NCBI GenBank assembly: GCA_963575745.1
Contig: CAUYUJ010000001.1
Location: 1,674,001-1,738,000 of the forward strand
Source: Prorocentrum cordatum
Taxonomy: Eukaryota
Direction: 5' to 3'
Length of the DNA: 64,000 bases
Position numbers and translations under genes: made by a program. Positions 47,492 to 54,853 of the stretch are shown in pieces. Position 1 is the first letter of the stretch; every line of letters starts with the position of its first letter. The notes below the pieces were generated by a model that saw only the letters and a list, made by a program, of their open reading frames with translations, was not told the DNA's origin and did not search any database.

Positions 47492-47895
47492 TGGCGTCGG
47501 GGCAGCCCCAAACGAGCCCCAAACGAGGCTCATTCTCACCCCAAGAGCGCCCTCGAGATTCCTCAAATTTAGCATTTCGCTCGAGTCATCCTCACCAACA
47601 TGAGGTGTTCGCAACGCCGTCTTCTACAACAAAAGACTTTCGCCTGAGGCATCCACCAGAAAATTACAACCGCGAGTTTAACAAACATGTGGACATGGGG
47701 ATATTGTCTGAGACATCCTCGAAACTATGAGATGCCGAAAGGCTGATTTCAGACCATGCGCGTTGAAACTGAACTTTTCGCTTGGGACATCTTCAGAACA
47801 TGGGCAGGATCACGGCATCCCAACACGCAGAAGCACGGCAGAACGCGCGAGAGCACGGCAGAACACACAGGAGCACGGCATAACCCAAAGAACAC

Positions 47896-49457
47896 TCCGT
47901 AGCCATTTTGGTTCATGCCGTGCTCGGGCGCGCGCCGCGCGCGGGCGCTTGGGCAGAATGGTGCGGGAGGTGCTCGCCGGTGTCGCGGCGGCCCGCTGGG
48001 CGGCGGACAACCTGGCGAGACGACTTGAGAAGGGGCTGCGGGAGGCGAAGGAAGTCATCGCCTGCTCCCAGGCGCAGCTGGAGTGCGGTTCGGGCGGCGA
48101 CGCCCCGGAGGCGGAGGCCCGCCGCCGCGAAGCCATCGCGCGGCCCGCCTTGGTTGCGCGCGTCCGCGGACGCCGCGAAACCAGGGCGCAGCGGCTGCGG
48201 CGGCACGTCGCGTGGCATGCCGAGCGCTGCCCGTCGGCAGACGCCCCTCCGCAGGCATGGCGCAGGGCTCAACGCGGGCCGCGCCTCCCAGGAGGGCCCC
48301 TTCCTGGTGATGGGCACGGCTGTGTGGCGCAGAGTGCCAGCGTGTGTGAGGTGGAGACCTGCGTCTGCGAAGTGCAGCCGCCGATTGAGTGCGCATTGGA
48401 TGTCTGCGTGGCCGAAGCGCCAGCGCGGCTGCCCAGCGCCCGAGTGGCGGCCGCGAGGACCCCGCTGCGGTCTAGCGCCCAGCCGCGCCTCCCCGAGTGG
48501 GCGCGTTGGGCCGCGCTGCTGGAGGAGCTCGGCGTGGCGCAGCTGGCCGAGCAGGGCTGCAGCGAGGTCGGCGCCGAGAGCACCGAGGCGGAGGAGATCA
48601 TGGAGCCGCCCCTGGCCGCGGACAGCGTCGACTGCTCCGCGGGCGATGGCCACTCGAGCTCGGAGGGCGCGTTCGTTTCGTTCCTGGACGGCTTCTCGGT
48701 GGCGGCGGTGGCGCGTGCGGCCAAGGGGCCGAAGTCGGGAGTTGAGTCGCTCCTGGACTTGGCCGAGGCCCGCGCCCTCGGCGTCCGCCTCGGAGGTGCA
48801 GGTTGCGCAGATGCCGAGGAGCACGGCATGGGGCTCGCGGCGGCCTTGGCTGCGCGTGAGGTCGTCGCTGTCTACGGCTGCGAGCCCGAGGAGGATCGCG
48901 CCATGGCGGCGCGTTGCTCGGCGTGGCGGCCGAACCGCGCGGCGACTTCCGAGAGCGAGGACAGCTTCGTGGGGGACTCGGAGTTCGAGGATCTCGAGTC
49001 TGAGCACTGGCAGTTCCTGCGTGACGAGTTCTCGGACGGCAGCGAGCAGGCCGCGGAGCACGAGGTTGCGCGCGCTGCCTGGCTGGAGCGCACGGGCTCC
49101 AGGCGCGAGGACGCTGAAAGCAGCCTCGAGGCCGATGCCCCTGGCGCGCGTGCGCAGGGGCGGCTGGCTGCGGCCGAGGCGGCCCAGGCGGCAATCCTGA
49201 GCGGCATCTGGCCGAGGGGCTGCGGTTGCTCGAGGCGGCTCAGGACTTCGGCCAGGCTGAGCGAGGCGTGCAGTTGCATTCTGCACGCAGATCTGGCCTC
49301 GCCTCGGTGTGGGGGGGGGGTGGGGTGGGGTGGGGTGGGCGTCTGACGGGGTTCGGCCCTTCCGCCTGCCCAGGCCCGCAGGGGCCGCCCCGCATTGGTT
49401 TCGAAAGGGGTTTTCCTTGCCCTTTAGCCTTGAAGGCCCCGTCTTTAACTTTAACTT
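47896..49457 (+). mobile_element. Spliced-leader-headed retroposon, copy 1
   Basis: Relict SL TCCGTAGCCATTTTGGTTCATG (47896-47917, 2 mismatches). GCCTTGAAGGCCCC (49427-40) plus (CTTTAA)n tail. Perfect TSD TAACCCAAAGAACAC at 47881-95 and 49458-72. Confidence 0.9.
47958..49346 (+). CDS. ORF of SL-retroposon copy 1 (462 aa, Ala/Arg-rich helical N-terminus, acidic C-terminal part; function unknown)
   Basis: First ATG downstream of the SL, in frame with ORF 47727-49346. Shares blocks with the copy 2 and 3 ORFs. Confidence 0.55.
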   Translation: MVREVLAGVAAARWAADNLARRLEKGLREAKEVIACSQAQLECGSGGDAPEAEARRREAIARPALVARVRGRRETRAQRLRRHVAWHAERCPSADAPPQAWRRAQRGPRLPGGPLPGDGHGCVAQSASVCEVETCVCEVQPPIECALDVCVAEAPARLPSARVAAARTPLRSSAQPRLPEWARWAALLEELGVAQLAEQGCSEVGAESTEAEEIMEPPLAADSVDCSAGDGHSSSEGAFVSFLDGFSVAAVARAAKGPKSGVESLLDLAEARALGVRLGGAGCADAEEHGMGLAAALAAREVVAVYGCEPEEDRAMAARCSAWRPNRAATSESEDSFVGDSEFEDLESEHWQFLRDEFSDGSEQAAEHEVARAAWLERTGSRREDAESSLEADAPGARAQGRLAAAEAAQAAILSGIWPRGCGCSRRLRTSARLSEACSCILHADLASPRCGGGVGWGGVGV

Positions 49458-52923: not shown

Positions 52924-54853
52924 AACGCGCGGGATCGGGGGGGGCACGGCCGAGCACACAGAGTACATAGGAGCACGGCAGAACACACAGGAGCACGGCA
53001 GAACACGCAGGAGCACGGCAGAACACAGAGGCACACGCACACAGGCATTCGCACACGCACACGCACACAGACACATAATCACCCGCACACACAGACACAC
53101 ACAGACACACACACGCACACACGCACACACAGAGAGGCAACAGACGTTCACGCAGATCGCAGGAGCGCGGCAGAGCAGCGCGGCATAACACAGCAGCGCC
53201 GCAGACCACCACGCACGGACACACATGCACATATTCCACGCACTCACGCGCACGCGCAAACGTACGCACGCCACGACATATCTGCGCGGCAGACCAACAA
53301 CATATCATAATTCATTCACCGAGTGGACAAAAGCGACGCTTCCCGTTCTTGTCTGGTCTGATTTGCATGACATAACTTGTATCACGCATATTGTAGTACA
53401 TAGTGCGCACCACGGAACTTGCACCACACAGCTTGTAGCAAATAGGTTGCACATTGCCAGCACGACACATATGCAACTTACACTTTCCCATTCTACATTC
53501 CTTGTCCTCTGAATATTTGAAACTGGTTCCCCTCCGAAGCTGGGCTCATTCGCTCACCTCCGTGTAGCGCGTGTTGTTCGTACGTACGCGCTAATGCACC
53601 ACAGTTTTTGTTGATTCTCTCTCCCTCTCGCTATCTGTCTCTCTCTATCTATACTTACACATTCGCCAGTCAAACAGATGTCTAGATGTACATAATATTG
53701 TGCTTAGCTGTGCACTCCACCTTATCCAACGCCAGCCAGGCGAGTATCGCTTCCCCCCTGACCTCGTGCCAAGGATGCGGTCGGGCACGGTCTGGGGTTG
53801 CCGGCCCAGTGCCCTTCGCCCCGAGAGGTGGGGGCGTGCTATCGTCTCAACGAGGAGCACGGCCACTGCCGTCACGCTGCGGAGGAGCCCCCCCCCTCTC
53901 GAGCTGACAGGGGCGATGCTGTGTCGGTGTCGAAAAAGCGAGTTGCGTGTCGAGTTGGGTGCGAGGCGGAGTGGAGGGATGAGTCTGGGAGGATGGAGGG
54001 TGGAAAAGAGGAGGAGGAGGGGCAACGAGTTAGGCCAGTTCATGTAATGATAGTACAGTGTGCGAGGGTAGGGTCCGATCGAACCGACTCGAAAGCCAGC
54101 CATGTTTTTATGGAGTGTCGGCTAATGGGATATGGACGACAATGAAGGAGAACGAGGACGTAGGAGGAGGGGACGAATGCGTTGGTGTTTGCATGGGGGT
54201 GAGGACGTGCGGGAACGAGGAGCAGGGAGGATATACATCACCCAGGCCAAGGCAGGGCATGCCCCCCCACGCCCCTGGGAACACCGACGCCTCAACTTCT
54301 GGTAGCAGCCCTGCCTCTCATCCCAGGCCTCTTTCGGGGACTCTCCTGCCACGCCCTTCGCTCTCCGGGAAGCCTGCTCGGCGCCACATTGGAATCGGGG
54401 GAGTTTTCGGGATCCTCCGTGGCCCCCGTTCCTTAAGAAGCCGCCTAGTGGCTGGAATGTTCGCAGACACCGAGCAAACCGGAAGCATATTTGGCCACAT
54501 TCATCGAGGAGTCGTCGGCCGTTTCAGGGCTGCCCATGGCGCCCAAGCAATCGTGGGCCCTTCGAGCGGATGGGAGCGTCGACCTACGCCAGCCATTTGT
54601 TCATATGCTGGGGCCAGCATTGACTCCTGGCTTATGGCGCACTTGATTCGAGCCCTTGTTGGCTCTCCTTGCACGATGTGGTATGGTGCTGCTAAGATGG
54701 GCACCTTCTCGCCTTGACACGTTCTTCCCGCTTGCGGTGCCCCATGCCCCCCCTTCGCAAGGAAGGGCCCCGTTGCCTGCCAGCGGGGCACACCTAACTA
54801 GTTATACGACGGTCTGGGTGTGTTCTTATAGCTTCGGAGAGCTCCAACCAATA

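Follow-up and report, generated by a model that had tools for sequence, protein, structure and literature searches.

We describe here three insertions in a 64-kb stretch of the genome of Prorocentrum cordatum (contig CAUYUJ010000001.1, positions 1,674,001 to 1,738,000 of the forward strand; hereafter the window, with positions counted from its first letter). The insertions, which we term U1, U2 and U3, are units of about 1.55 kb each that lie on the same strand and each begin at base 1 of the dinoflagellate spliced leader (SL). We consider it moderately probable that they are processed retrocopies from a heavily recycled family of host genes, and that a satellite-specific non-LTR machinery (LTR, long terminal repeat) put them in place in trans through target-primed reverse transcription (TPRT). 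Each unit is an insertion of its own, all three sit in a common register of one satellite, and their open reading frames (ORFs) belong to one protein family.

Spliced leader, termini and target site

The 22-nt dinoflagellate SL (DinoSL) matches the window at three positions, all on the plus strand: 47896 (two mismatches), 49775 (perfect) and 51397 (two mismatches). No match would be expected by chance (100 shuffles). The initial annotation, made from the letters alone, had put the start of each unit exactly at the first base of an SL, one perfect and two with two mismatches, and this proved correct. So did the common 5' motif and the 3' quasi-palindrome that it described. The former, CTCGGGCGCGCGC, lies in the 5' untranslated region (UTR) and is exact in all three units at 47923, 49819 and 51425, 6-23 nt downstream of the respective SL; with up to one mismatch the window holds six matches, and the other three lie elsewhere and carry one mismatch each. 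The latter, GCCTT[G/T]AAGGCCCC, is exact at 49427, 51329 and 52891, once near the 3' end of each unit, and occurs nowhere else in the window, even at up to two mismatches. It is followed by a short repeat tail and not by poly(A), as had also been claimed: GTC(TTTAAC)3 in U1, the same with two changes in U2, and TC(CAAC)5 in U3, with no A run in any of them. In both types of tail a short unit with AAC at its end is repeated in tandem, and in all three units the final AAC is common to the tail and the target-site duplication (TSD). The layout of the locus is as follows.

47831..47895, plus strand: satellite left of U1, 20-bp unit GCACGGCAGAACACACAGGA; the left TSD of U1 takes up the final 15 bp (47881-47895)
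47896..47917, plus strand: SL relic of U1, two mismatches
47923..47935, plus strand: 5'UTR motif of U1, CTCGGGCGCGCGC; the entire 5'UTR is 47918-47957
47958..49346, plus strand: ORF of U1, 462 codons, family frame
49427..49460, plus strand: 3' motif of U1, GCCTTGAAGGCCCC, with GTC(TTTAAC)3 tail, overlapping the TSD by the final 3-4 nt
49458..49472, plus strand: right TSD of U1, 15/15
49473..49774, plus strand: satellite that separates U1 from U2; the left TSD of U2 takes up the final 15 bp (49760-49774)
49775..49796, plus strand: SL relic of U2, perfect
49819..49831, plus strand: 5'UTR motif of U2
49846..51148, plus strand: coding region of U2, broken; N-domain frame 49846-50679, C-terminal block in the +1 frame
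51329..51364, plus strand: 3' motif of U2 with tail GTC TTTAAC TTTGAC TTTTAAC
51362..51376, plus strand: right TSD of U2, 14/15
51382..51396, plus strand: left TSD of U3, beginning at the AAC of the satellite unit right after the U2 site
51397..51418, plus strand: SL relic of U3, two mismatches
51425..51437, plus strand: 5'UTR motif of U3
51454..52638, plus strand: ORF of U3, 394 codons
52891..52926, plus strand: 3' motif of U3, GCCTTTAAGGCCCC, with TC(CAAC)5 tail
52924..52938, plus strand: right TSD of U3, 12/15
52939..53031, plus strand: satellite right of U3

Duplications of 15 bp adjoin both ends of every unit. They were detected with a script that sets the 25 nt upstream of every SL against the surroundings of every tail, and they agree at 15 of 15 positions in U1 (TAACCCAAAGAACAC), 14 of 15 in U2 and 12 of 15 in U3, where every one of the three differences is A/G. 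The cores of the U1 and U3 duplications are each confined in the window to their own two TSD places. The core of the U2 duplication, by contrast, is a satellite variant that is common, with four places in the window, and the U2 TSD therefore rests on the restored 20-bp period. Removal of a unit together with one TSD copy leaves satellite units of 29, 20 and 29 bp for U1, U2 and U3, and these lengths occur elsewhere in the same satellite array. The earlier proposal that the units, each with its own TSD of about 15 bp, are separate RNA-mediated insertions and not tandem duplicates is borne out by these junctions.

All three insertions lie in the same register of the 20-bp satellite, GCACGGCA[G/T]^AAC; every TSD opens with AAC, and the second cut lies 15 bp downstream in each case. 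U2 and U3 occupy consecutive 20-bp satellite units with their sites 20 bp apart, and GGCAG alone (5 bp) separates the right TSD of U2 from the left TSD of U3. Between U1 and U2 the spacing from TSD copy to TSD copy is 302 bp. The satellite is confined to about 47.1-53.2 kb, where 23 of the 24 window matches of its 16-mer lie (at up to three mismatches), and all three SL matches of the window fall inside it. A further, fourth case of a satellite/SL junction may be seen at the peptide level in the family protein P0023, where the residues upstream of the methionine read as a satellite translation (STADHTGAR), then as the SL (SVAILAQ) and then as a U1-like 5'UTR.

The units are not near-identical copies and not copies of one master. 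With blastn, U1 and U2 share a 227-bp coding block (89% identity) and their 3'-terminal 32 bp, and U2 and U3 share an 84-bp block of the 3'UTR (90%); the remaining sequence does not align. Duplication at the DNA level is disfavoured by this divergence. SL RNA genes were considered as an identity for the units and ruled out, as no GT intron follows the SL in any of them. Predicted RNA folding is significant neither at the 3' ends of the units (z -0.61, -0.36 and 0.05) nor at their 5' ends (z -1.42, 0.01 and -1.14), and no structure is shared at either end. Rfam returns just sub-threshold miRNA-like matches, at 27-30 bits against gathering scores of 84-100.

Two observations on small segments may be added. 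In the conserved block of U1 and U2 (48700-48790 and 50958-51048; FLDxFS...GPKSGVE) Rfam places weak hairpin-like mir-639 matches, which at 29-30 bits against a gathering score of 100 are probably due to chance. Some 400 bp upstream of U1, at 47457-47492, a run of about 16 T passes directly into about 21 A; around it stand repeated GGGACATCCTC...AAA units that also contain pieces of GCACGGCAG, and a sub-threshold miRNA-like Rfam match is all that this segment gives.

A large protein family and the state of the three copies

The closest relatives of the unit ORFs are P. cordatum proteins, of which twelve predicted ones on different contigs are related to the units, and short contigs from ENA and JGI. 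Searched with a profile of twelve family members, 1.84 billion representatives clustered at 50% identity yield 269 clusters at E≤1e-3, of which 101 also reach E≤1e-10. The family has a conserved N-terminal domain (N-domain) of about 110 residues with the motifs R..A..PAL, RLRRNVALHA and AQRGPRL; across 92 sequences one column is invariant and ten are nearly invariant. Many members end in a conserved C-terminal block, FLDDFSVAAV...GPKSGVE.LL..AEAR. Structure prediction, which the initial annotation had suggested for the ORFs, was informative for the N-domain, where AlphaFold2 gives four helices at a predicted local distance difference test (pLDDT) of 94-98; the model is confident over residues 1-110 and the rest is disorder. 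The fold search added just generic coiled coils, matching the first helix alone (Z≤5.9). A profile search of the PDB had a coiled coil as its best match (E 0.032), the ESM Atlas search was without a usable match, and Pfam assigned no family to the four unit ORFs at E≤1.

The comparison with ORF1-only elements of the HAL1 type that had been drawn at the outset finds no support. No reverse transcriptase (RT), endonuclease or L1-ORF1 domain was found in the 155 relatives scanned (143 + 12), and no RT, endonuclease or ORF1 domain of long interspersed nuclear elements (LINEs) in 127 ORFs of the window. The latter are what remains of 150 stop-to-stop ORFs of at least 150 aa after 23 were dropped for overlap with the units, and no Pfam match above the gathering cut-off occurs among them either. 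Since the units carry no RT or endonuclease, they can be passengers only.

A motif resembling PAM2, [LFMIV]xxxAxxFxP, is present in 41 of 157 members at one position just after the N-domain (e.g. LNPNAAEFFP and LSPLAKEFVP), whereas 200 shuffles gave 2.1 on average and 7 at most. The PAM2 consensus is L-x3-A-x2-F-x-P, and its binding partner is the MLLE domain found in poly(A)-binding protein (PABP). In the units the site lies at aa ~166-179 (U1), ~220-231 (U2) and ~181-190 (U3), with the F replaced by L, Y and S, respectively; Pfam does not report PAM2 in the unit ORFs or their relatives. In the relative P0117 the N-domain is fused to an MLLE domain (Pfam E 1.9e-26) in place of the motif. A predicted complex of the motif region of P0016 with this MLLE domain scored 0.46 against 0.02 for the best control, which is weak support; at scores of 0.60 or below the mark was reached by just 5 of 78 solved complexes, and by all four mismatches that passed. 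The runs agree in at least 89% of contacts and the partner pLDDT is at least 56; the score may reflect memory, the pair being a textbook one. The motif hints at a PABP-binding function for this large, unannotated family.

Four of the 143 relatives (P0032, P0065, P0107 and P0117) have an unrelated Pfam domain beside the N-domain, among calpain, MORN, globin and MLLE; these could be real fusions or gene-model run-ons across tandem genes. When P0002, P0003, P0004, P0013 and P0015 are compared with U1-U3, conserved blocks (the N-domain, CE(A/P)EEDRA...SAWRP, FLDDFS and an ...AEGLRLLEAAQ end) appear in differing orders and combinations. This mosaic order would fit template switching, frequent recombination within the family or gene-model artefacts.

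At a GC content of 66-74% long ORFs come cheaply, and the opposite strand carries one of 673 codons. ORF length alone therefore says little, and it is homology, not length, that establishes the coding frame given here. The ATG that the initial annotation saw within 50 nt of the SL lies at distances of 40, 49 and 35 nt in U1, U2 and U3; of its ORFs of about 400-460 codons, that of U2 is not in the family frame, which is broken. Read from its first ATG (49846), this frame stops after 277 codons at 50679, and the C-terminal FLDDFS...GPKSGVE block continues in the +1 frame to 51148, with the shift near 50540. The 406-codon ORF of U2 begins 131 nt after the SL in a frame other than the family frame. 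Four sequencing runs, X1 to X4, were used as contigs, and 646 X1 contigs could be placed at 90% identity or more. Over 50540 there is a single X1 contig, from a paralogue of 92% identity; it is one base short at this place, and the loss would bring the two U2 frames together. U2 is frameshifted and now a pseudogene.

U1 is perhaps a pseudogene as well. Its reading after 49205 differs by one base from the relatives P0003 and P0015, and an extra G at 49205 that gives the relatives' frame is present in one X1, two X3 and one X4 contig. Most contig depth at this position agrees with the window's reading, and the break is therefore just possible. The ORF of U3 is open; Ser replaces the Phe of the PAM2-like motif, which its three closest relatives retain, and it has no C-terminal family block. 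With P0012 (88% identity) U3 runs collinear from the 5'UTR through 79% of the ORF. The dN/dS comparison among copies that the initial annotation had in mind can be made in the U1-U2 block alone. Over 74 alignable codons the ratio is 0.75, with 8, 7 and 7 differences by codon position, a small sample that gives no sign of constraint and is consistent with near-neutral change.

Proposed insertion mechanism and alternative origins

We propose that the source RNAs are SL-capped mRNAs of one fast-evolving, unannotated P. cordatum family. The bottom strand would be nicked by an endonuclease at a single fixed position in the satellite, GTT^C(T/A)GCC (top strand GCACGGCA[G/T]^AAC), and the freed ...GTT-3' end would pair with an RNA whose 3' end consists of repeats ending in AAC, and would prime the cDNA. 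With priming on these repeats no poly(A) would be copied. Synthesis would proceed to base 1 of the SL, the capped 5' end, and a second nick 15 bp downstream would give rise to the 15-bp TSD. RT and endonuclease would both be supplied in trans by a satellite-specific non-LTR element located outside the window. The AAC repeats may be the true RNA end, the sequence just before poly(A) or a product of RT slippage. Integrases give duplications of 4-6 bp, and capture at breaks usually leaves deletions or no TSD. Because insertion by an integrase gives shorter duplications, the 15-bp TSDs favour a non-LTR enzyme and TPRT. Independent events have one 3' terminus in common, U1 and U2 ending alike between different TSDs. 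As to the source, the size of the family, the conservation of its N- and C-terminal domains and its PAM2-like motif speak of selection for a function of the protein in the cell, and we infer a host gene rather than a parasite; the frameshift in U2 and the near-neutral U1-U2 block point to decay of U2 and perhaps of U1.

Several sequences speak for recycling of the family. In P0012 a new SL is followed by a relic SL without its first 7 nt and then by the 5'UTR of U3, in frame (LAQAILAQG...), and P0016 has two SL relics. One X4 contig has a tandem SL like that of P0012 before 51417; X1, X3 and X4 contigs join an SL via 26 other letters to a U3-type start codon. SL peptides stand upstream of the methionine in 7 of 159 family proteins. 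A tandem relic needs a relic-bearing copy that was transcribed and trans-spliced, and the family has therefore gone through repeated rounds of retroposition. Four X1 contigs fit the window up to the 3' end of U1 (49461) and then diverge. Together with the twelve P. cordatum proteins they show that further copies exist elsewhere. The initial view that the units are not ordinary retrogenes lacks clear support; their ORFs belong to a large family with conserved domains. In X3 and X4 the summed depth is high where sequence is U3-like and low over the satellite, and in X1 and X2 it is the reverse, which we do not take as evidence of expression. Metagenome scans gave 547 stretches and no confirmed relative with P0012 protein patterns, and no match with the 23-nt 3' end of U1/U2. 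Six candidate proteins that might read through the U3 3'UTR frame were not significant, and none of the 159 family proteins reads through the 3' motif or the tails.

A number of points weigh against retrocopying of host mRNAs by a satellite-specific machinery. The targeting is seen at one locus, with three insertions and the peptide-level case of P0023, and the junctions are those read in the window sequence; the U2 TSD is on sequence indistinguishable from satellite periodicity. No RT-encoding partner element is seen in the window. Priming on AAC is a proposal, and one X3 contig extends 185 nt beyond the 3' motif with sequence unlike the window. The dN/dS of the U1-U2 block depends on 22 differences. 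Finally, conservation is higher at the termini than in the coding sequence, the pattern expected of an element adapted to retroposition: both terminal motifs are exact among units that blastn fails to align in their coding parts, and between U1 and its distant relative P0023 the 5'UTR is identical at 12 of 13 positions as peptide when the N-domain stands at 55%.

This last point and the 3' end common to independent copies give weight to a possible, if doubtful, alternative, in which the units are a dedicated non-autonomous, protein-coding retroposon whose 5' end is set by trans-splicing and whose 3' end (GCCTTKAAGGCCCC plus AAC repeats) is recognised by the RT of a partner LINE. Such an element would persist through copies that are re-transcribed, trans-spliced and re-inserted, its 3' end acting like the tail of a short interspersed nuclear element (SINE). 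Terminal motifs that are exact in three of three units with interiors unalignable by blastn, and a 5'UTR in which U1 and P0023 have diverged far less than in their coding sequence, are what it predicts. The single 3' terminus common to independent insertions, with poly(A) in no copy, and the identical target register in all units agree with it, as do the repeated rounds seen in the tandem SL relics, the near-neutral change in the sole coding comparison possible and the mosaic block order among paralogues, which template switching predicts. It has to contend, however, with a large and diverse ORF family whose N- and C-terminal domains are conserved and which carries a PAM2-like motif, with the lack of similarity to LINE ORF1, RT or endonuclease and of a partner LINE in the window, and with 3' ends that have no significant or common RNA fold. 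About a dozen loci are visible via predicted proteins. SL relics and recycling are moreover, in the portions of the literature matched, common to at least a fifth of dinoflagellate genes (PMC11453091, PMC6050394) and hence no mark of a parasite.

A related proposal, which we regard as rather unlikely, retains the satellite-specific TPRT with nicking at GCACGGCAG^AAC and makes the PAM2-motif family a semi-parasitic passenger, a protein-coding retroposon with an SL cap. The conserved 5'UTR and the GCCTTKAAGGCCCC-(AAC-repeat) end would then be cis-signals for repeated cycles of transcription, trans-splicing and re-insertion, and the PABP-binding protein of the passenger might act on its own RNA.

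An origin at the DNA level, as an ordinary tandem gene array with the satellite as spacer and an SL relic inherited from one ancestral retrogene, seems very improbable. The units do lie close together in one orientation and belong to one family, and such arrays are described as typical of dinoflagellates in the part of PMC11453091 matched. Yet each unit has its own 15-bp duplication at both ends, the satellite period is restored when a unit is removed, the spacers are very unequal (302 bp against 5 bp between TSD copies), and the units have just short blocks in common, with a U1/U2 tail that differs from that of U3. We give the least credence to cDNA made by another RT, from an LTR-retrotransposon particle or elsewhere, and captured by repair at breaks of a fragile satellite without a site-specific endonuclease: LTR elements are favoured as mediators of dinoflagellate retroposition in the passages of PMC6050394 matched, and AAC microhomology at the 3' junction would also suit repair, but three 15-bp TSDs at the same register suit a staggered enzymatic cut.

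Surroundings and comparison with known systems

The remainder of the window (1-47000 and 53000-64000) consists nearly entirely of repeats and has no recognisable gene. Simple repeats include (CACGCA)n at 6793-7114, (TAG)96 at 15666-15953, (CAGCCT)n at 38625-40355, (CGA)n at 42187-43978 and (GAC)n at 44023-44310, and a 177-bp repeat occupies 45118-46309. Repeats of 77-99 bp at 3906-5687 and 31018-31963 have a common TCGGTGGAGCTCCCTATGGGGCCAC core. An AT-rich island at 22616-29062 (GC 0.39-0.45 against about 0.6 elsewhere) is built of tandem or inverted units of about 164 bp with GGGAAACGCAATTGTGGCTCA. One compound repeat occurs twice, about 6 kb apart (15368-16229 and 21698-22235), as 28-bp TGGTGTGAGTCGTTCGGGC... 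units followed by 11-bp TTGGGGCCTC units; in the first copy (TAG)96 stands between the two parts.

Retrogenes with DinoSL relics were reportedly described by Slamovits and Keeling in 2008 as 'mRNA recycling'. They are by now well known and are said, in the parts of the papers matched, to exceed 20% of genes (PMC11453091, PMC6050394, PMC5585692, PMC7245778, PMC12014239); for P. cordatum the matched text gives DinoSL on the transcripts of 20.1% of gene models (PMC10666404). The RT that mediates their formation is treated there as unknown, with LTR elements favoured in section 7 of PMC6050394 and the question left open in the matched part of PMC12014239. In this literature, as far as its matched portions go, the TSDs, tails and target sites that dinoflagellate retrocopies have were not found described; the DinoSL tables of PMC10666404 may list the genes treated here. 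For dinoflagellate SL together with TSDs PMC7789003 alone matched, and its matched part concerns introners of Amoebophrya. The term 'target-primed reverse transcription' was not found in the dinoflagellate retrogene texts matched, and among the matches nothing relevant was found on site-specific non-LTR elements with satellites in dinoflagellates or on a dinoflagellate PAM2 family. SL-relic retrogenes are thus known, and it is the insertion anatomy, with TSDs, AAC tails and a fixed satellite cut site, that is new. Complete junctions at this locus carry the signature of an endonuclease-driven, target-specific non-LTR mechanism, and they turn the open question of the RT behind dinoflagellate retrogenes into a simple genome-wide test at GCACGGCAG^AAC sites. 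The PAM2-like motif is a first functional handle on a large 'dark' protein family.

The units share with the DinoSL-relic retrogenes described in the matched parts of Song et al. 2017 (PMC5585692), Song et al. 2018 (PMC6050394) and Haro et al. 2025 (PMC12014239) the DNA-encoded SL at the 5' end of an apparently intronless copy, the tandem of a new SL and a truncated relic among relatives, and what appears to be a multi-copy family as source. Those studies, in the same parts, use the 5' relic without TSDs, 3' ends or target sites, whereas here full junctions are available. Processed pseudogenes made by LINE-1 are full-length copies of host mRNAs with TSDs of 7-20 bp, mostly dead on arrival and drawn with preference from well-expressed families. 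Full-length mRNA copies and TSDs are alike in our units. LINE-1 copies, however, have poly(A) and loose TT/AAAA sites all over the genome, in contrast to the AAC repeats and the one satellite register found here.

In SINE/LINE pairs such as eel UnaSINE1/UnaL2, and in CR1/L2-type tails, a common 3' end with a short-repeat tail is specifically recognised. The defined 3' terminus, the short tandem repeats, the lack of poly(A) and the proposed mobilisation in trans are the same as in these pairs and in HAL1. The units differ in being copies of SL-capped mRNAs for a cellular-looking protein without ORF1 homology, whereas SINEs are pol III transcripts and HAL1 elements deleted LINEs. Target-specific non-LTR elements are known from the R1 clade, with TRAS/SART at telomeric repeats and Waldo/Mino/Kibi at microsatellites. 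Another, Utopia, inserts at U2 snRNA genes according to the matched part of PMC4640811. They and our units have in common that independent insertions hit one and the same nucleotide in a repeat array, all oriented alike and with microhomology between target and tail. All of them encode their own RT and endonuclease, whereas here the passengers are seen and the driver is the element that our model would require. SLACS, CZAR and NeSL of trypanosomes and nematodes insert into SL RNA genes and, like the units described here, link SL biology with non-LTR retrotransposition. In those systems the SL RNA genes are the target; in P. cordatum the inserted RNA has the SL as its 5' end, and a satellite unrelated to the SL serves as target.

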